Positions 1 through 56,755 of a DNA stretch of 64,000 bases are shown here, in pieces. The translations under genes and the position numbers were made by a program. How positions within the stretch are numbered: the first letter of the stretch is position 1; the number at the start of each line of letters is the position of its first letter. The notes below the pieces were generated by a model that saw nothing but the letters and a program-made list of their open reading frames with translations, made no database searches and was not told where the DNA came from. Source of the DNA: Octopus vulgaris (taxonomy: Eukaryota); contig OX597828.1 of the NCBI GenBank assembly GCA_951406725.2, positions 34,658,001 through 34,722,000 on the forward strand. Reading direction: 5' to 3'.

Positions 1-206
1 GGCCAAAGATTGAAATTATTATTATCGTTGTTGTTATTACATTTGAGAAAGTGCAGAGGATTTCAGAAGAATAGTAGTTTGTTTACAGGCAAACACAAAA
101 ACGTACACACATACGCATACACGAGTACACATACACACACACACACACACACACAAAACATACACATAGATTCGAACATAAGTTGAAAGCAGTCTTATAG
201 GCCACT

Positions 207-5504: not shown

Positions 5505-5713
5505 TCTTTTTTTACTCTTTTTACTTGTTTCAGTCATTTGACTGCGACCATGCTGGAGCACCGCCTGTAGTCGAGCAACTCGACCCCGGGACTTATTCTT
5601 TGTAAGCCCAGTACTTATTTTATCGGTCTCTTTTGCCGAACCGCTAAGTGATGGGGACGTAAACACACCAGCATCGGTTGTCAAGCAATGCTAGGGGGAC
5701 AAACACACATACA
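5505..5713 (-). mobile_element. SINE family B, 3' half
   Basis: Near-identical to 30561-30760. Confidence 0.9.
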
Positions 5714-5728
5714 CATGGGTACATTCTT

Positions 5729-6137
5729 ATTTCTTTATTCCCCACTAGGGGCTAAACATAGAGGGGACAAACAAGGACAGACAAAGGGATTAAGTCAATT
5801 ACATCGACCCCAATGCGTAACTGGTACTTAATTTATCGACCCCGAAAGGATGAAAGGCAAAGTCGACCTCGGCGGAATTTGAACGTAACGGCAGACGAAA
5901 TACCTATTTCTTTATTACCCACAAGGAGCTAAACACAGAGAGGACAAACAAGGACAGACAAACGGATTAAGTCGATTATATCGACCCCAATGCGTAACTG
6001 GCACTTATTTTATCGACCCTGAAAGGATGAAAGGCAAAGTCGACCTCGGCGGAATTTGAACTCAGAACGTAGCGGCAGACGAAATACCGCTAAGCATTTC
6101 GCCCGGTGTGCTAACGTTTCTGCCAGCTCGCCGCCTT
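5729..6137 (-). mobile_element. SINE family A, tandem dimer with 15-bp TSD
   Basis: tRNA-like head (A box ctggcagaaacgttag, B box gagttcaaattcc), central gcctttcatcctttcggggtcgataaa domain (resembles the Meta/MESC SINE domain) and LINE-like tail. TSD catgggtacattctt at 5714-5728 and 6138-6152. Dimer junction at about 5903. Confidence 0.92.
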
Positions 6138-21077: not shown

Positions 21078-21525
21078 TTAAACCTGCATGCGATATGGTT
21101 CCGAGTTTGAATATGAATAAAATAAATAACACCGCACAACGACAACCGCCATTTTCAACAGCAGACCCGGGGTTAAACAACAACAACGACATGATATTTG
21201 TCTGATCACACATTTCGACGATAACATTTAAAAGTAATACATATTGTAGGATGGTCAGCATAGATGGTTATCAGTAATAGCATTGATTATGGGTAAAATG
21301 GTACTGGCAGAAAATAGAGTTATTAGAGCGCAGGCTTAGCTGTGTGGTTAAGAAGTTCTGTATTACTTTTAAATGTTATCGTCGAAATGTGTGATCAAAC
21401 AAATATCATGTCGTTGTTGTTGTTGTTTAACCCCGGGCCTGCTGTTGAAAATGGCGGTTGTCGTTGTGCGGTGTTATTTATTTTATTCATATTCAAACTC
21501 GGAACCATATCGCATGCAGGTTTAA
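21078..21525. repeat. About 165-bp inverted duplication
   Basis: 21078-21241 is the near-perfect reverse complement of 21359-21525. The ORF track shows the same peptide on both strands. Confidence 0.95.
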
Positions 21526-21627: not shown

Positions 21628-22032
21628 AAAGGCGCCGAGCTGGCAGAAACGTTAGCACGCCGGGCGAAATGCTTAGCGATATTTCGTCTGCCGTTACGTT
21701 GTGAATTCAAATTCCGCCGAGGTCGACTTTGCCTTTCATCCTTTCGGAGTCGATTAAATAAGTACCAGTTACGCACTGGGGTCGATATAATCGACTTAAT
21801 CCGTTTGTCTGTCCTTGTTTGTCCTCTCTATGTTTAGCCCCTTGCGGATAGTAAAGAAATAGGCATTTCGTCTGTCTTTATGTTCTGAGTTCAAATTGCG
21901 CCGAGGTCGACTTTGCTTTTCATCCTTTCGGGGCTCGATAAATTAAGTACCAGTTTCGCACTAGGGTCGATCTAATCGACTGGTCCCCTTCCTAAAAATT
22001 TCGGGCCTTGTACCTAGTGTAGAAAAGATTAT
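21628..22032 (+). mobile_element. SINE family A dimer with two different tails
   Basis: Unit 1 ends in the LINE-like tail ...gtaaagaaata. It is followed by ggcatttcgtctg and unit 2, which has an alternative tail (aaaatttcgggccttgtacctagtgtagaaaagattatt). Confidence 0.9.
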
Positions 22033-24761: not shown

Positions 24762-25183
24762 AGGCGCAGGAGTGGCTGTGTGGTAAGTAGCTTGCTAACC
24801 AACCACATGGTTCCGGGTTCAGTCCCACTGCGTGGCATCTTGAGCAAGTGTCTCCTGCTATAGCCCCGGGCCGACCAATGCCTTGTGAGTGGATTTGATA
24901 GACGGAAACTGAAAGAAGCCTGTCGTATATATGTATATATATATATATATGTATGTGTGTTTGTTTGTGTGTCTGTGTTTGTCCCCCTGCTTGACAACGG
25001 ATGCTGGTGTGTTTATGTCCCCGTTACTTAGCGGTTCGGCAAAAGAGACCGATAGAATAAGTACTGGGCTTACAAAAAGAATAAGTCCCGGGGTCGATTT
25101 GCTCGACTAAAGGCGGTGCTCCAGCATGGCCGCAGTCAAATTACTGAAACAAGTAAAAGAGTAAAAGAGAGAAAAGAGAGAGT
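24762..25183 (+). mobile_element. SINE family B, full length
   Basis: tRNA-like head (tggctgtgtggtaag; gggttcagtccc), CORE-like cttgagcaagt segment, internal (TA)(TG) microsatellite and (gtaaaaga)n tail. Confidence 0.92.
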
Positions 25184-27604: not shown

Positions 27605-27838
27605 TAAGGGTGCGAGCAGGCAGAAACGTTAGCACGCCGGGCGAAATGCTTATCGGTATTTCGTCTGCCGTTACGTTCTGAGTTCAAATTCCGCCGAGGT
27701 CGACTTTGCCTTTCATCCTTTCGGGGTCGATAAATTAAGTACCAGTTACGCACTGGGGTCGATCTAATCGACTTAATCCGTTTGTCTGTCCTTGTTTGTC
27801 CCCTCTGCGTTTAGCCCCTTGTGGGTACTAAAGAAATA
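27605..27838 (+). mobile_element. SINE family A, full-length monomer with 11-bp TSD
   Basis: TSD actatcaataa at 27594-27604 and 27839-27849. Confidence 0.92.
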
Positions 27839-30560: not shown

Positions 30561-30770
30561 ACTCTTTTACTCTTTTACTTGTTTCAGTCATTTGACTGCG
30601 GCCATGCTGGAGCACCGCCTTTAGTCGAGCAAATCGACCCCGGGACTTATTCTTTGTAAGCCCAGTACTTATTCTATCGGTCTCTTTTGCCGAACCGCTA
30701 AGTGACGGGGACGTAAACACAGCAGCATCGGTTGTCAAGCAATGCTAGGGGGACAAACACAGACACACAA

Positions 30771-36254: not shown

Positions 36255-37385
36255 CTGGCCCCACACCAACAATAGAATGTTCCAGTGCAAAGGCATCTGA
36301 CATATCTAAAACAACACCAGGTCCACCGACCACACCAATACTAGGGCAACCCCACCTCGCACCAAAAAGAAAGCACACACACACACACACAACAGTCAAC
36401 CACAGAGACTCCCATCAGGCCACCAACTGCACCAACAGAGTAACCTCGGTCTTATACGTTCTCACATCACTTTCCGATCGGCATTGGGATTGATTAGAGG
36501 GGGATGTGTAAATGTTCGTGGCCTAGGATCGCCCTGGAAGCAGCGGTGCCTTCTCAACGACCTTAGGTCACTATCTATGAATGTCACGGCTGTTAGCGAA
36601 ACCAGGATTCCTGACATACGTGATCTGGCCCCATTTTCGACGAATTTGAGATCTACGCATCTCTTTGTCAGCCTGAAATGTGGGTTGAGGTGGTAGCGCT
36701 GTTTATGAAAGGCCTGGATCTCGAGGTATGGATCTTGGGCCTTGCAAGTAAGTTAATGGTCCTGGATGTGAGTAGCAGCGAAGGTAGTGCTTTCAGACTA
36801 GTCACTGTGTAGTTCCCAACCGAAGCGGAGCAGCCAGATTTATTCAGATGTTTGGCGGTTTTCTTTGGAACATCTCGCTCTTTAGTTTTAGTGGGCGATT
36901 GGAACGTGTAGCAGTTTTCCTCTTTCTGATGGCTATAGTGAAAGAGGTAGTGTGGTGTACAAGATTGAAAGGACTGAAGACAGGTACTGTCCTCTTTGGC
37001 CAAACCCTCATCGACTTTTTCAAGTTTCACTTAAAAAGGAAAGTGAAAGTAGAGAGGAAAGTTCTGATCCCCCAATAGATTTATTGAAAGGTGGGTGAAT
37101 ATGGCGAGGTTGGCTCGTGTGAATGGGCCGACTCTGAACTTTCGCTTGTAAACCGGGGTAGTTGAGAAGAAGAAGAGAGGCGTCTGCTGAGGTGCAACTG
37201 ACTGGTCGGGATAACCAGGCTGTATGGGGTTCGCCTTTCGGGGAATTTTTACTGTTAAATTGTTTTTATATTTGTTTTTTTTTTTGTTACTTATTGTGTA
37301 CACGGCATTGTGCAACACCCCACCTGTCCCTTGTATTGTCCCTATTTGTTTTGTATTCGGCCCTTGTGGCCAATAAAACAAAGTA
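36255..37385 (+). mobile_element. Internally deleted L1/Tx1-like LINE (endonuclease start fused to ORF2 C-terminus)
   Basis: APE endonuclease N-terminus CVNVRGLG...VTAVSETR from 36484, a GDWN-like stretch at about 36893, then directly VKEVVWCTRLKG...FFKFHLKRKVKVER and the 3' tail ggcccttgtggccaataaaa. Confidence 0.82.
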
Positions 37386-42852: not shown

Positions 42853-43568
42853 TTGTGTGTCTGTGTTTGTTCCCCTAGCATTGCTTGACAACCGATGCTG
42901 GTGTGTTTACGTCCCCGTCACTTAGCGGTTCGGCAAAAAGAGACCGATAGAATAAGTACTGGGCTTACAAAAAGAATAAATCCCGGGGTCGAGTTGCTCG
43001 ACTAAAGGCGGTGCCCCAGCATGGCTGCAGTCAAATGACTGAAACGAGTAAAAGAGTAAAAGAGTAAAAGAGTAACTACAATTTTAAAAAATACCTGTGT
43101 AGAGATATAAAATACTCCGATTTACAGAATACAAATGATATCAGGAGGTAACTGAGTAGAGTTTTACAAGTCCAACAAGCTGTTTCTGGGGGTTTGGTGG
43201 CCCGAAATAATGATAGTTACTTGGATCCGTTATCAGATAACACCACCTCCGTCTTCAGGGGAGGATTTTACATTTCTGGTGTCGACAGGATGGATTACAT
43301 CTTTAAATTGCATCCTGTCAACACCTCAAATGTAAAATTCGCCCCTGAAGACGGAAGTGGTGTTATCTGATAATGGATCCGAGTAACTATCATTATTCCG
43401 GACCACCAAGCCACCAGAAACAGCTGTTAGACTTGTAAAACTCTACTCATTTAATTTCTGATATCATTTATATTCTGTAAGTCAGACTATTTTATAATCA
43501 TACACATGTACATTTTTTTCTATTAAATGTATTCAATATTCTGTGTAAATCGACCTGCCAGCTTGCTT
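42577..43568. mobile_element. Large decayed foldback (Penelope-like) element interrupted by SINE B
   Basis: 43107-43293 is the reverse complement of about 43311-43494, and 42580-42614 pairs with 43532-43567. CTGAAGA and GAAACAGCTGTT motifs occur in the right arm. Confidence 0.7.
42620..43073 (+). mobile_element. SINE family B, near full length
   Basis: High identity to 24762-25183. Confidence 0.93.
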
Positions 43569-45399: not shown

Positions 45400-46780
45400 T
45401 AATATGAGTATTTTTATCCATTTCGTAGAACTCGTAGTTCTTATATTTTTCAAAAAGTTCTGCAATCCTAGCGGCTGATTTTTTCGCTTTTGTTTCTCTT
45501 ATTAAATCTTCATTATTGCTGTATAACGCGACTATCCCGCTGTCTTCTGCTTCCTTCCTTACTATTTTTGGTTTGTCTCTTCGCAGTTTTTTTTTTTTTT
45601 TTGTTTTGGTCTTAGTTTGACCTATTTTTGTTGATTTGAGCTTTCCATTTTTCTCTTGTTGTTAGTTGCTTACTTTTCTTCTGTTTTCTCTCTCTCTCCT
45701 CCTTACCATCGGTTTCTTCCTCACTGTCTCTACAGTGTTTTTTTTTTATATAGCCCAGCTGACCACACTGGAAACATCGGGGCTTACGCCCCTCGACGAA
45801 TACGTTAACAAAATTCCTCCCGAATTTCTATTTTCTCCGGTAACTGATCTAAAATTGACTGTTCTGATTTATTAGGAGGTGAAACGTTTGACCGGTCCAA
45901 TAAGCCTTTTCTGTGACGGTAGTCTGAAGGAGTGTTATATTATCTTCCTTTTTTACCAGGACTGCTGCCATCAACCACATAGGGTCGACTTGAGGTGGGA
46001 TCCTTGGTATACGTATCTTTAACGTCCTCATTCCCATATATATTGGAATTAAAACAACCTCCTGCGTTTCTAAAGATTAAACTGAGTGCACATTTGTAGT
46101 TTCTATATCTTTTAGTTGTACTTCGATAGTACCAAACTTCTTTCCTCTGGCTAGGTATATGATATCCTGCCAGATGGGTTTCAAGCACTTCTCAACTTTC
46201 TCTTCGCTCACTCGATCAATTTTTTGTTTCTTTTAGACAGTAAAATTTAAAAATAATTGTTTTTCTTTTTTCTAACATTAATAGTTCTTCCGGGGGTTGA
46301 ACTTTCGCAACACCGTCCTCAATTCTTCTCATATCTTTGTACTTTATCAAGTCATATTTGTTTGTCGACAGCTGGCGGGTTCCACCTCCAGCCACCGACG
46401 CAAAACTTCTCTTTTGTTTATTTTCTTCTGTTTGAAGGCTTTTCACGTCAATATTCCTCTTTGCAACAGTACACAGTGATGGTTAGGGAAATTCATTTTC
46501 AGAAGAATCCGAAACATCGCCAAATATTAAGCTTTCAATCTTTTTTGCCTCCTTGTCGGTTGACCACTCTTCGCCAGACGAAGTTACACTTTTCGGCATC
46601 TTGCCAGCAATTAATGTTTCCCCCACAGGGGAAAACACACGATAGTTTTCGAACGGAGGCTATCACACAAGTAATTATAACAGGAACAATAATTATAACA
46701 GGAAATAACTCAAAAACAGTCGATAGAAACTTGCACTTACTTGCACTCCAATAATAATTACCAATAAATCCAAATTCACA
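45400..46780 (-). mobile_element. LINE ORF1 (gag-like, CCHC) element, decayed, no ORF2 seen
   Basis: ATG at 46599 (MPKSVTSSGEEWSTDKEAKKIESLIF), then SFASVAGG, GKKFGTIEV, IPPQVDPMWL, YWTGQT and VNVFVEGRKPRCFQCGQLG across frameshifts. Confidence 0.82.
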
Positions 46781-47217
46781 CAGACGAAATACCTATTTCT
46801 TTACTACCCAAAAAGGGCTAAACACAGAAGGGACAAACAAGGACAGACAAGCGTATTAAGTCGATTATATCGACCCCAGTGCGTAAATGCTACTTATTTA
46901 ATCGACCCCGAAAGGATGAAAGGCAAAGTCGACCTCGGCGGAATTTGAACTCAGAACGTAGCGGCAGACGACATACCTATTTCTATTTCTTTAATATCCA
47001 CAAGGGGCAAAACACAGAGAGGACAAACAAGGACAGACAAATGGATTAAGTCGATTACATCAACACCAGTGCATAACTGGTACTTAATTTATCGACCCCG
47101 AAAGGATAAAAGGCAAAGTCAACCTCGGTGGAATTTGAACTCAGAACGTAACGGCAGACGAAATACGGCTACGCATTTCGCCCGGCGTGCTAACGTTTCT
47201 GCCAGCTCGCCACCTTA
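46781..47217 (-). mobile_element. SINE family A tandem array directly 5' of the ORF1 element
   Basis: Two units, each tail joined to ggtat(t/g)tcgtctg (junctions at about 46793 and 46977). Confidence 0.92.
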
Positions 47218-49695: not shown

Positions 49696-49948
49696 TTACA
49701 GAAATGTACTTGCATAGCAAGTGACCTGATCTGAGATCGTGTGCTGGAACGAAAACAATTGCAGCGTGGAAGGTGTTTATAAGCCATTTAAGAAACACAC
49801 AAAAACCGTTAGATTCATTTCAACATTTAAATTTAATTTGTCAAAATATTTTCGTCGCTTTAACAAATTAAATTTAAATGTTGAAGTGAATCTAACGGTT
49901 TTTGTGTGTTTCTTAAATGGCTTATAAACACCTTCCACGCTGCAATTG
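49696..49948 (-). mobile_element. Short Penelope-like insertion with inverted pLTR copy and 13-bp TSD
   Basis: 87-bp inverted arms (49755-49841 / 49863-49949, one mismatch). TSD tgatacttttgta at 49683-49695 and 49949-49961. The loop holds a hammerhead 3' half on the minus strand (cGAAAATATTTtgac). Confidence 0.78.
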
Positions 49949-50194
49949 TGATACTTTTGTAGTAATAATCAAATTCAATGAAAATACGGGAGAAAGTCAA
50001 AATTTTGATATACATTTCTAACAGAGGCCCAAACCATATATTTTACAAGAGAAGTTTCGTTGACGTAATCGTTCCTAATAGTTTAATAAGTTAATGATTT
50101 CTAGGACTCCATAAATATGACAGGCAACGTTGACCTCGGCAGGATTTGAAATCAGAACGTAAAGTTACAGAAGTGAATACTACTAAGCTACGAA

Positions 50195-50362
50195 TTCTTT
50201 TCTACTTTAGGCACAAGGCCCAAAATTTTGGGGGAGGTGGCCAGTCGAATAGATTGACCCTCAGTACGCAACTGGTACTCAATTTATCGACTCCGAAAGG
50301 AGGAAAGGAAAAGTCGACCTCGGCGGAATTTGAACTCAGAACGTAAAGACAGACGAAATACC
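50195..50362 (-). mobile_element. SINE family A body starting at the GGTATTTCGTC site
   Basis: Minus strand reads ggtatttcgtctgtctttacgttctgagttcaaattccgccgagg...; it carries the alternative tail. Confidence 0.9.
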
Positions 50363-51112
50363 AATTTCTTTATTGCCTACCGGGAGCCAAACATAGAAAT
50401 GAACAACTGATGGGATCAGTAAAGCGATATGATTTTACATATAATGTGACTTAAAAAATTTAAATACAATATTAAAAAATCGAATGGAATTAACAATACA
50501 AAGACAATACAAATGAAGAGATGATCAAGCAACGCTCCGACCCCACAAGCCCCGATCTACCGGTGGTACCTTTTTTTTTGTTCTTTTTTTTTCGTCTATT
50601 CACACGGTTCCTTGCATGCACAACACTCGTGCAAAATGCTTCCATCTCTTTTGGAACGTACACTCCGAGAGACATCACTTCTCCAGCCACAGCTTCCTTT
50701 TCAAATTAAAAGTAAAAAATGATCGTAAATTGTGTCCAGAGATAAAGTTGCCTGTCCTAATTCCTTTTATCCTAGTCTTCCATACTGCCTCTTTCGCTAT
50801 TGTTACAACCGTGAGAAAACAATTCTTACCTTCGTTCGTTAAAACTCCCGAAGGGTCAATTTTTATAATTGACTCAGTCGACAGTCGTACTCTTCCTTCG
50901 CCGGACAACAGGTGTTCAGCATAAGCCCACATTTCAGATATCTCCGGACACTGGACAATAGCATGAGGGACGGTTTCCCTGTCCCCTCCCCCTCGCATCT
51001 TGGACAGGTCGGAGACTGACGCTCACCGTGTCTTGCGAGCTTATCCCAAACGGGCAAGACATCTCTGTAGCATTGCCAGATTAAGGATTTTGGGAAGTTT
51101 CCAATGGAGGTA
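50363..51112 (-). mobile_element. L1/Tx1-like LINE 3' end (ORF2 zinc finger and 3' UTR), 5'-truncated
   Basis: LPVWDKLARHG...TCPRC...ETVPHAIVQCPEISEMW (C-terminal CCHC of L1/Tx1 ORF2), then AKEAVWKTRIKG and FNLKRK. Tail ggtaggcaataaagaaatt. Confidence 0.85.
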
Positions 51113-51313
51113 ATCGATTTGTTAAAATTGCCGAAATGCTCGAAATTTCAGACGAAATATCTTACAAACTATAGAATTTTCTCAATAAAGCCAAGAGAAA
51201 ATGATGTTTTATAAACACATTCTACCAGTATACGAAGTTTAAAACTTTTTTAGTTACCTAGAAATTATGTTACAAAGTGCCGTTCAAAAGGAAAAGATCC
51301 AAATTTTAATATA

Positions 51314-52099: not shown

Positions 52100-53700
52100 A
52101 CGAATCGCGCGAGGCGCTTGCTGCTGCTTGCCGTTGTTTTTTTCTCATTTTAGGGGAAAGAAAAGATGTCGTCCCTCCGTCATGGATACCTATGCGAGGG
52201 TTGCTGCGACAAGAAGTGTCGCATCACTGGGTTTTAAAAAGAAAATGTTACAATTGATAAAGAAGAAATATAGAGATGTGAACAGTACGTGAGAAGGGAG
52301 GGAGAAAGCATCAAGCTGATCCCTCCAGCAGAAACAACAGAGGATAAGAACCTTAAAAAGATTATATATAAACTCAAGATACGAACACAAAGAAAATAGT
52401 ATGGATATCAGAAGAAATAGAAAAGTGTCTTGGAGATGTAATGGAAAGAGCAACATACGCCAGCAGAGGGAAAAGTTCGGTACGGTGGAGGTGAGGTTTG
52501 CCACAAGTGAAGAGGCGGCCTCGCTATCTACCGCTATCTTAAGAACAGAAAGGTTTACAATGTTACCCCTTTACAAAGGAAGAAGAAGCATAAGGATTAA
52601 GATTCCGAACATACCGCCGGAGATAAAAACGGAATGGCTGGTGACAGCGATTCTAGGTTCTACAAAAGACGAACCCGAACTTGGTACAGTTACCGAAACT
52701 AATATAGTGAACTGGAAGGGATTCAGTGTCGAGATGTGGCTTATGGCCACAACAGAAGACATAGAGAGAATCCCCTTCCAGATAGAAGTGGAAAATGAAC
52801 CAACGATAAACATTATTGTCGAAGGAAGGCGACCCAACTGTCATCTGTGCGGAACTAGAGGACATATAAGGACTGAGTGTCTATTATATGAATTTACACA
52901 AAGTAAAGAGACAACAGAAAAGGAATAAAAAGAGCAAAAGAAACAATAGCGACAAGACAAAGTTCAGAGAAAAAAAACAAGAAGGACAACAAGAAGAGAG
53001 AAATGGAAAAACCAAAGGAAGAGAGCAAAGGAGCTACCAGCCCCAAAAGTAGAAAAAGATCGAAGCCGAGGGAAGACTCAGCGGAAACAAAAGGTAATGA
53101 TACGTTTAAATTTTATGGAGCATTTGTAATATACAAAAGATCCTATGAAATAGAGAAAAAAGGATCGAGAATGAAGAGAGTAACAAGAGTAAGGATGGGA
53201 ACCAAGTATGACGAAGACGAGATTGGTGTTTTAGTCCCTGCGGACAGTTACGCCAATTTCATCGAGGTCGCCAGAAAGAAAATACAAGGAGATAAGAGGT
53301 GTCGGTTGATGGATCATCCACCTCCCGTAATGGATTATCAGGAGCTGAAAAGAAAAATAGAATATCTCTGAAATTTATGAAAAAGTGGAAAATGTTACGA
53401 AAAACTATGTTTGTGAAATTTAATTTTTTGAACTGTGAACTTCAATTGTAATTTTGTGAAATTGATATGTAATTTTGTAAAACTCAGTTATAATCTTTGA
53501 GAAAATCAATTACGGGAAAAGACAGACAAAATGTAACCACTCCACTTCGGGGTTCGAGTGAGCATTGCGCCTCATTATAATATCTTATAATTTATTCTTT
53601 TTTAATTTCTTCGTCTTTATTCATTCTCTTTTGTTATTTTATGTTCCCCAATTGTACTGTCCCCATCTATGTATAGTCCTTTATGGATAATAAATAAACC
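52100..53700 (+). mobile_element. ORF1-only LINE derivative with LINE-type 3' tail
   Basis: ATG at 52182 (MDTYARVAA), ORF 52401-52928 with a CCHC knuckle, ORF 53003-53371, then about 330 bp of UTR ending tgtccccatctatgtatagtcctttatggataataaataaa. Confidence 0.8.
52182..53371 (+). pseudogene. LINE ORF1p-like nucleic-acid-binding protein (RRM-like region and zinc knuckle), disrupted
   Basis: EKFGTVEVRF, IKIPNIPPEI and INIIVEGRRPNCHLCGTRGHIRTEC (Cx2Cx4Hx4C). Frameshifts near 52290-52400 and a stop at 52928. Confidence 0.85.
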
Positions 53701-55029: not shown

Positions 55030-56522
55030 TAACGAACATTTATACAACCAATGTGAATAGACGTGACTTGCCTTTTTGATCGGGGCGTCCTGTGGAGAGG
55101 GACTCTCCACCTTTTCTTGACTTAGGGTCGGAGATGGCAAGCCTTCAAACATAAATTGGTGAAAATCCAGTCTCAATGTTGAGACCGATTTTCTATGTGT
55201 TAAACAACATGTACGTTTTTTCGTCCAATTCATAAAATTCGTAATTTGTGTATTTATCTGACAGTTCAATTAATCTAGTTGCTGATTTTTTTGGTTTTTA
55301 TTTCCCGCATTAAGTCTTCGTTTTTGCTGTGTAGTGCAGCTATTCCTCTGTTCGTCACCCCCTCCGCCTTCCTCGGTCTGTCTCTCTTGGCTTTTTTTTT
55401 TTGTCTCGACTCACTCTGCTTTTGCTGGTTCGAGCCTTCCATCTTCCTTTTGTTGTTTATTTTTCCTTCTATTTTTCTCTCTCTCTCTTTCTTCCTCTTC
55501 GCCGTCTGATTCATCTACACCTTCTTTACAATATTTTTTAATGTGACCCATTTGGCCGCACCGGAAACGTGGGGCTTACTCCCCTCAGCAAAAATATTTA
55601 TAACTTCCTCCCCTACTTCCACGATTTCTGGGATCTGTTCTAAATTTTTTTGGTCAGCCTGCAGTATGAGGTTAAGCGTTTGACCAGTCCAATAGGTATT
55701 CTCTGTGACGGTAGCCAGCAGGAGGTTAATATTATATTCCCTGTTTGCCGCCATCAATCACATAGGGTTTACTCCGGGTGGAATTCTTGATATTCTCACT
55801 TTTGATGTTCTCATTCCCATATAAATTGGGATTAACATTGTGTCTTCCGACTCTAAAGATTTTATAGTGTTTTTGTGCCGTTTCTGCATTCTTGAACCTC
55901 ATCACGATGGTTCCAAACTTCTTCCCTTTGGCTAGATACGTAATGCCCTGCCAGATGGGGTTTAGACATTTTTGCTCACATATCTTATCAATTTTACGAG
56001 CTTTTAAGCAGAATATCTTGAAAATAATATTTTTTTCCTCCGTTAATTCTTCTTCTGGTATTTCCACTTTTACTATTCCATCTTGTTCTGTTATCATATC
56101 TTTGTATTTTAGTAATTCATTTGTCAGTTGAAAGCTGTCGCGTTCCACTACCAGCTGCTGATACAAAACTTTTCCTTCATTAATTTTGGATGGTCCTTTC
56201 TTCTGTCTTTCTTTTGGTGTTCGTAACTCTTGGTAATGCCGGAAATTCGCTTTCCGACACACCAGAAACGTTATCAAAAATTAAGCTTTCTATTTTCTTT
56301 GCTTCTCGCTCAATCGATGATTCATCACCCGACGAAGAAGACAAACTTTTTGGCATATTACCGGCAATTAATGTTTTCCCCCACAGGGGAAAACCACAGA
56401 TAGCTTTCGAAAGAAAACTATACTACAATTTTTTTTCAACAATAAGTCCAACAATAGGCACAAGAGATATAACAACAGAAACTTACGAACACACTCCAAC
56501 AATAAATTTTCAATAACAGGCG
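55030..56522 (-). mobile_element. LINE ORF1 (CCHC) element, decayed, no ORF2 seen
   Basis: ATG at 56356 (MPKSLSSSSGDESSIEREAKKIESLIF), then GKKFGTIVMRF, YWTGQTLNL and INIFAEGSKP..FRCGQMGHIKKYC. Confidence 0.85.
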
Positions 56523-56755
56523 TACGAAATACCAATTTCTTTACTACCCACAAGGGGCTAAACACAGAGAGGACAGACAAACGGATTAAGTCGATTATAT
56601 CGACCCCAGTGTGTAACTGGTACGTAATTTATCGACCCCGAAAAGATGAATGGCAAAGTTGACCTCGGCGGAATTTGAACTCAGAACGTAACGGCAGCCG
56701 AAATACTGCTAAGCATTCCGGCTGGCCTGCTAACGATTCTGCCAGCTCGCCCACC
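56523..56755 (-). mobile_element. SINE family A directly 5' of the ORF1 element
   Basis: Tail ...gtagtaaagaaatt joined to ggtatttcgt, then ORF1 element 5' UTR. Confidence 0.9.

Follow-up and report, generated by a model that had tools for sequence, protein, structure and literature searches.

A LINE with L1/Tx1-group features at one fixed site of an abundant SINE in the Octopus vulgaris genome

Introduction

Site-specific LINEs known so far target rRNA, snRNA, microsatellites and DNA transposons. R2, with its restriction-like endonuclease and single ORF, differs from the octopus LINE described here, which has an N-terminal APE domain and two ORFs. The likeness to R2 lies in the element RNA, since target sequence on it (28S rRNA flanks) is said in the available text of Kojima's paper to strengthen site-specific integration (Kojima, 2015; PMC4494074). 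The same text gives transposons, snRNA, 5S rRNA, satellites and microsatellites as Tx1 targets and states that co-transcription with the target can strengthen targeting (PMC4494074). Tx1L in Tx1D of Xenopus and Keno in U2 snRNA genes, as described there, resemble the octopus element in being APE-type LINEs at a fixed site of a multicopy element (PMC4494074). They differ in target, a piggyBac-type transposon in one case and an RNA gene in the other, whereas the octopus element enters a retroposon that is itself likely LINE-dependent.

The closest known system appears, by analogy with what the available text describes, to be that of the crocodilian Tx1-Mar LINEs and their SINEU partners, which have a common Mariner target (Kojima, 2015; PMC4494074). 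In both systems a LINE and a SINE prefer one common target that is itself a dispersed repeat, the preference of the SINE is weaker than that of the LINE or variable, SINEs are inserted in tandem, truncated copies exclude hitchhiking, and some elements have target-derived 5' extensions. The crocodilian target is a Mariner DNA transposon entered in two broad regions, whereas insertion in octopus is at a single nucleotide position in a tRNA-like SINE. A further difference is that the target family in octopus is likely also a passenger, which would close the loop, and that SINE and LINE have a common 3' tail.

SINE multimers and SINE-derived satellites have been attributed, in the text available, to unequal recombination or to full-length multimers (Vassetzky, 2023; PMC10702118). 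The octopus arrays described below are likewise tandem SINE-derived units of similar length, but they are one-headed and every junction lies at the LINE target site. OR1 and OR2 are described in the accessible parts of two papers as tRNA-derived octopus SINEs (PMC4824008, PMC4758252). A 2026 repeat annotation of O. vulgaris reports recently active L1-Tx1 families, and the word "target" is absent from the portion available (PMC13282606). Among the papers searched, in the parts available, there is no report of a SINE-targeting LINE or a self-targeting SINE; Repbase, Dfam and SINEBase lie outside that search, and prior annotation there is possible.

The focal junction and its neighbours

The window is a 64,000-nt stretch of O. 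vulgaris contig OX597828.1. SINE positions are given in the frame of the monomer at 27605..27838, and the features to which the text refers are as follows.

50363..51104, minus strand: LINE 3' fragment of an older subfamily, 88-91% identical to full-length copies
50350..50362, minus strand: downstream copy of the target motif, SINE position ~51-63
50193..50362, minus strand: host SINE part downstream of the insertion, a body with the second tail type (A2)
51104..51300, no strand assigned: inverted-repeat arm of an unrelated MITE-like element adjoining the LINE fragment; both arms present in copy L080, 92-93%
55032..56522, minus strand: LINE 5' UTR, ORF1 and ORF1/ORF2 junction, older subfamily
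56521..56533, minus strand: target motif directly upstream of that LINE 5' end
56534..56751, minus strand: SINE head and one unit with a LINE-like (A1) tail, upstream of the same LINE 5' end
45408..46780, minus strand: sister LINE 5' UTR and ORF1, 66-68% to the focal family, starting at the identical target motif
46781..47217, minus strand: SINE head, two A1 units and target motif (junctions 46977 and 46793)
5728..6137, minus strand: SINE dimer, head and two A1 units (junction 5904), with a 14-15 nt target-site duplication around it
21629..22028, plus strand: SINE dimer, head, A1 unit and A2-tailed body (junction 21862)
27605..27838, plus strand: monomeric A1 SINE with an ordinary 11-12 nt target-site duplication

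On the minus strand, the LINE 3' end passes into SINE sequence at 50363|50362, between the A- and B-box-like motifs, just as the initial annotation had claimed. The fragment at 50363..51104 comprises a frameshifted ORF2 C-terminus (the zf-RVT region, assigned from an intact relative), a 3' UTR and a tail without poly(A). A look-alike of the target motif at 51149-51161 was considered as the focal 5' target-site duplication and rejected; it is part of the separate MITE-like inverted-repeat arm, where its occurrence appears to be a coincidence.

The 18-nt junction motif has 8 matches in the window at up to 3 mismatches, against 0.11 expected. The annotation counted six junctions of LINE tail and SINE in the 64 kb. 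All six exist, but only that at 50362 involves the LINE tail; the other five (5904, 21862, 46793, 46977 and 56533) follow the SINE's own 3' tail. The 60-170 nt upstream of these five have 85-95% identity to the SINE and 49-56% to the LINE; for the final 45 nt the figures are 76-91% (SINE) and 60-76% (LINE). The likeness to the LINE junction comes from the A1 SINE tail, which is 60-76% identical to the last 45 nt of the LINE. At two of them, 46793 and 56533, a LINE 5' end (5' UTR and ORF1) comes after the motif in place of SINE body. The fragments at 55032..56522 and 50363-51104 may be two halves of one insertion split by later events, since they share a strand and stand in the correct order.

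Several related elements lie nearby. A LINE ORF1 40% identical to the focal ORF1 runs antisense at about 52100-53300 (plus strand), between the two halves, and a related ORF2 fragment found by tblastn at 36502-37066 (plus strand) has an internal deletion that joins the EN start to the C-terminal part. A third type of 5' UTR and ORF1, found at 45408-46780 and in copy L059, begins at the identical motif. The 5' end of the LINE family thus appears to have been exchanged, or to have diverged, at least twice with the target unchanged.

Anatomy and class of the LINE

Searching the genome (2.8 Gb, 227 contigs) at the DNA level gave 2307 LINE candidates, 40 of which were scored. A 31-nt pattern from the LINE tail, flank excluded, has 68 exact matches in the genome; the LINE sample consists of 7.5 kb around 63 of these matches plus 11 further copies and leans to young, well-matching copies.

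Full-length copies are about 5.36 kb. A separate ORF1 of about 510 aa lies upstream of ORF2; it has no Pfam match, and a CCHC knuckle is present in 3 of the 4 copies examined. ORF2, of 1134 aa, has Exo_endo_phos (an N-terminal APE endonuclease), RVT_1 and a C-terminal zf-RVT above the Pfam cut-off, and its complete frame with catalytic motifs is present in three copies. The best PDB match for ORF2 is human L1 ORF2p (residues 5-867, E 8e-64), and the closest named protein among the homologues listed is from Argonauta hians (61%). The 5' truncations are variable, and full-length copies have the target motif at both sides. The element therefore has the features of the L1/Tx1 group: the ORF2 domains, a separate ORF1, 5' truncations and target-site duplications.

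Target preference in the Tx1 clade is set at >20% of flanks in the available text of PMC4494074; the octopus value is 70/74. A search by homologue name found no named Tx1 relative among 120 listed homologues or 10 clusters. Named homologues among the matches listed come from argonaut, sea cucumber, fish and lancelet, hosts that would fit Tx1-clade membership without proving it; the placement itself is suggested by anatomy.

Copies L003, L010, L022 and L035 have large internal LINE deletions with differing breakpoints and both ends kept, and L045 and L046 (G000:C3, 153.11 Mb) represent a whole LINE-in-SINE locus tandemly duplicated about 6.45 kb apart.

One fixed site in the SINE

The LINE inserts at one fixed site of an abundant SINE. 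Of about 80 loci in the sample, a script parsed 74 distinct 3' ends and dropped copies with deleted tails, such as L017 and L025, whose 3' sides by eye also run into SINE. Seventy of the 74 enter a SINE body at the motif, at SINE position 52. The remaining four comprise one that enters the 5' end of another LINE via the motif, one with the motif and then unrelated DNA, and two off-target copies with 16-nt duplications that start G(G/A)TATT. A sister tail pattern that differs by a few bases served as control and has the motif next in 1 of 31 matches, which may not all be LINEs. The 5' ends agree, with target sequence (the SINE head) directly upstream in 41 of 42 young full-length copies and before 19 of 21 matches to the old-type 5' pattern. 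The annotation's claim of a single SINE site, and the target enrichment that it proposed to look for in genome-wide 3' flanks, are both borne out. The annotation further proposed that the abundant SINE may act as a safe harbour for the LINE.

Insertion into older and varied hosts

A single ancestral LINE-in-SINE chimera, amplified as a unit, might produce the same junction everywhere, an outcome that the annotation named as fatal to its reading. It would account for the one head variant common to nearly all young copies and for the two private flank changes that L116 and L129 have in common, but several features of the sample contradict it. In 30 clean copies (10 of the 40 were omitted for large indels or older subfamily, and the contrast recurs in all 40), divergence from the majority is 0.64% within the LINE, 7.4% in host head 6-38 and 1.25% in head 39-62; downstream it is 2.6% at +1..13 and 4.9% at +14..119. 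Host SINEs diverged by 5-7% around a LINE diverged by about 0.6% do not derive from one amplified chimera, and they show at least three tail types.

The 32 copies without a young-type 5' end add a truncation series: 10 are truncated at differing points and joined straight to a SINE head or tail. Six of the other 22 are old-type copies preceded by SINE, 2 are unresolved, and 14 have unrelated DNA upstream. These 14, mostly older, and 3 others look like products of later disruption; in the 11 of the 17 that could be resolved, with an array end found, no convincing duplication surrounds the truncated LINE plus SINE. L116 and L129 were considered as sister copies, a pairing left unsupported because their LINE sequences are not each other's closest relatives. 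The age contrast and the truncation series refute the single-chimera reading, to which we give almost no credence.

SINE-head sequence inherited with the LINE

Head 39-62 is nearly as young as the LINE itself, and about 20 nt of SINE head (positions ~46-63) are evidently inherited with the LINE. One head variant occurs in 40 of 41 young hosts, compared with about 4 in 10 exact free heads (by eye, in the first 100 of 31,227 rows). A second, private head variant has 8 pattern matches in the genome, and all 8 precede a LINE 5' end; it occurs in 0 of 31 free SINEs with the same first part of the pattern (p=1.6e-8). Further upstream the 8 hosts are unlike one another, and where the 3' end can be seen (4 of the 8) it has the normal motif. 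By eye, the young head variant is combined with an A2-type body in three hosts, a pairing found in 0 of 22 free A2/A3 SINEs. The simplest reading of these patterns is that a SINE-head 5' leader on the RNA replaces the host copy during second-strand joining.

These observations bear on what fixes the site. The annotation credited the preference of the endonuclease; the fixed site stands, but the explanation is incomplete, as target-derived sequence is inherited with the LINE. If the endonuclease alone fixed the site, the low divergence of head 39-62 would reflect a long recognition sequence. Such an account is in keeping with the off-target copies that still start G(G/A)TATT, with the young subfamily's concentration in one head variant and with the leaning of truncated young copies to that variant (6 of 8, p=0.056), a figure that may hint at some endonuclease preference beyond RNA homology. 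However, recognition cannot create a variant that is absent from free SINEs and precedes 8 independent LINE copies, and it leaves the pairing of the young head with A2-type bodies unexplained. The inherited leader contradicts the endonuclease as a complete account, which we regard as improbable; it is probably not the sole determinant, and RNA-DNA homology likely helps it.

The opposite extreme, a nearly non-specific endonuclease with RNA-DNA homology alone directing integration into SINEs, would draw on the inherited leader, on the sister with a similar tail that inserts at varied sites, and on duplications around SINEs inserted off-site, several of which have a downstream copy shifted towards GGTATTT. 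The truncated copy L088, with G upstream and the subfamily's C downstream, and these shifted duplications fit a model in which the RNA past the tail base-pairs with the primer. Against homology alone, the young zone extends no more than about 13 nt downstream, which places the nicks close to the junction and not all along the homologous SINE body. So short a zone implies a local nick to which the endonuclease likely contributes, and homology as the only guide seems very unlikely. A joint contribution of endonuclease and RNA homology is the reading preferred here.

The SINE, its tails and its arrays

The SINE is about 234 nt long, short, non-coding and dispersed, with variable target-site duplications and a LINE-like tail; its head has 31,227 exact matches in the genome. 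A- and B-box-like motifs are visible by eye in the head, ARAGORN predicts 0 genes in the window, and one SINE copy queried against Rfam has 0 matches. A1 is the commonest subfamily, and its tail pattern has 94,834 genome matches. The A1 tail is 67% identical to that of the focal LINE, with similar hairpins predicted, and by eye it is closer to the sister-LINE tail. The partner could be the focal LINE or its sister, whose nearer tail is not SINE-targeted; A1 is likely mobilised by this LINE group, through the same or sister machinery.

A1 tails frequently run into the LINE's target site. Among the first 100 of the 94,834 matches, by eye, 53 run on into site 52; of the remaining 47, 22 have GG next, versus about 3% expected from base composition. 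In the sampled DNA, which is LINE-enriched, 61 of 149 A1 tails continue into site 52 and 79 end off-site, compared with 0 of 27 other tails at site 52; this tally was made separately from the array parser, which is designed to stop at any non-A1 tail. At off-site insertions, the duplication frequently starts with GGT that was already present in the target. Genome-wide, 24,463 exact junctions join a SINE tail to site 52.

Arrays L201-L204 (G000:C1, 3.63-4.68 Mb) are SINE-derived and contain 5 to at least 10 units of 184-187 bp. In these four long arrays the inner units are near-identical (mostly 0-3 differences) and the last unit is different; the first two units of L202 differ by 5-13. The inner units of L202 look chimeric between insert and host. 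Given the near-identity of inner units, a large number of the 24,463 junctions do not represent insertions of their own, and the combination with a different last unit indicates that one insertion can be followed by local expansion.

It is also conceivable that, although the LINE is target-specific, most of the SINE-on-SINE junctions go back to a small number of dimers that were copied in one piece, through read-through or DNA-level duplication, and moved by a non-specific sister LINE. The homogeneity of the long arrays, the SINE tail nearer to that of the non-targeting sister and the off-site position of about half of the A1 tails would all suit this alternative. The last units speak against it: they vary in type, are unlike the inner units in all four long arrays, and are more diverged than the first in 16 of 26 arrays, with the reverse in 8 (Wilcoxon p=0.0075, a comparison confounded by subfamily). 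Off-site targets that themselves start GGT are a further difficulty. Whole-dimer amplification is consequently a serious but rather unlikely explanation, and repeated insertion of A1 at site 52 with later local expansion is preferred.

A second fixed junction lies at SINE position ~18, the start of the A-box-like motif, and accounts for 9 of the 149 A1 tails and one sister-LINE tail (copies L106:5150, L167, L174, L003, L010 and L200).

A possible LINE-SINE loop

The 5.4-kb APE/RT LINE probably reaches SINE position 52 by target-primed reverse transcription, guided by a nick at GTATTT together with SINE-derived RNA flanks, a proposal that we hold with good though incomplete confidence. The endonuclease would nick the SINE at the GTATTT motif and start target-primed reverse transcription, with SINE-derived sequence at both ends of the LINE RNA assisting site choice. 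The RNA would start in the SINE head and run past the tail into the target, because every donor sits inside a SINE. Its read-through 3' extension may pair with the nicked strand and prime synthesis, and cDNA of the 5' leader could then pair with the host head, taking the place of the final 20-25 nt there.

For the SINE, the A1 subfamily probably took its tail from this LINE group and would insert at relaxed GGT(A/T) sites, with position 52 of other SINE copies a frequent landing point. Such landings of SINE into SINE could create one-headed tandem arrays that expand locally. The most abundant SINE form ends in a LINE-like tail and occurs joined to site 52 of other copies of itself, so the parasite likely multiplies the LINE's landing site. 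In the fullest version of this proposal, LINE and SINE form a self-sustaining loop in which SINE-guided homing brings the LINE to one SINE site, while the same machinery moves the SINE into itself and into new sites, building landing pads and seeding tens of thousands of 184-bp tandem arrays. We advance the loop tentatively, as somewhat short of an even prospect.

That this is a real target-specific LINE with a new kind of target, a SINE, is well supported; the self-targeting partner SINE and the RNA-borne target flanks go beyond the first reading of the locus and are proposed from sequence comparison. The target is here a SINE likely reliant on the same machinery, with tens of thousands of junctions. 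The loop, if true, would mean that RNA homology steers an L1-like enzyme in nature, and the system suggests how a dispersed SINE could give rise to satellite-like arrays. Young full-frame copies and a non-targeting sister tail occur in one genome, which makes the respective shares of endonuclease and RNA-DNA pairing testable. In practical terms, repeat annotation of the O. vulgaris genome will split or miscount the LINE/SINE composites.

Other repeats in the window

Long near-perfect inverted repeats, MITE-like or fold-back, lie at 49755-49949, 43086-43518 and 21078-21525. Another abundant dispersed repeat family of about 200 bp, with copies 90-95% identical, is found at 5514-5715, 24966-25162, 30569-30769 and 42854-43064.
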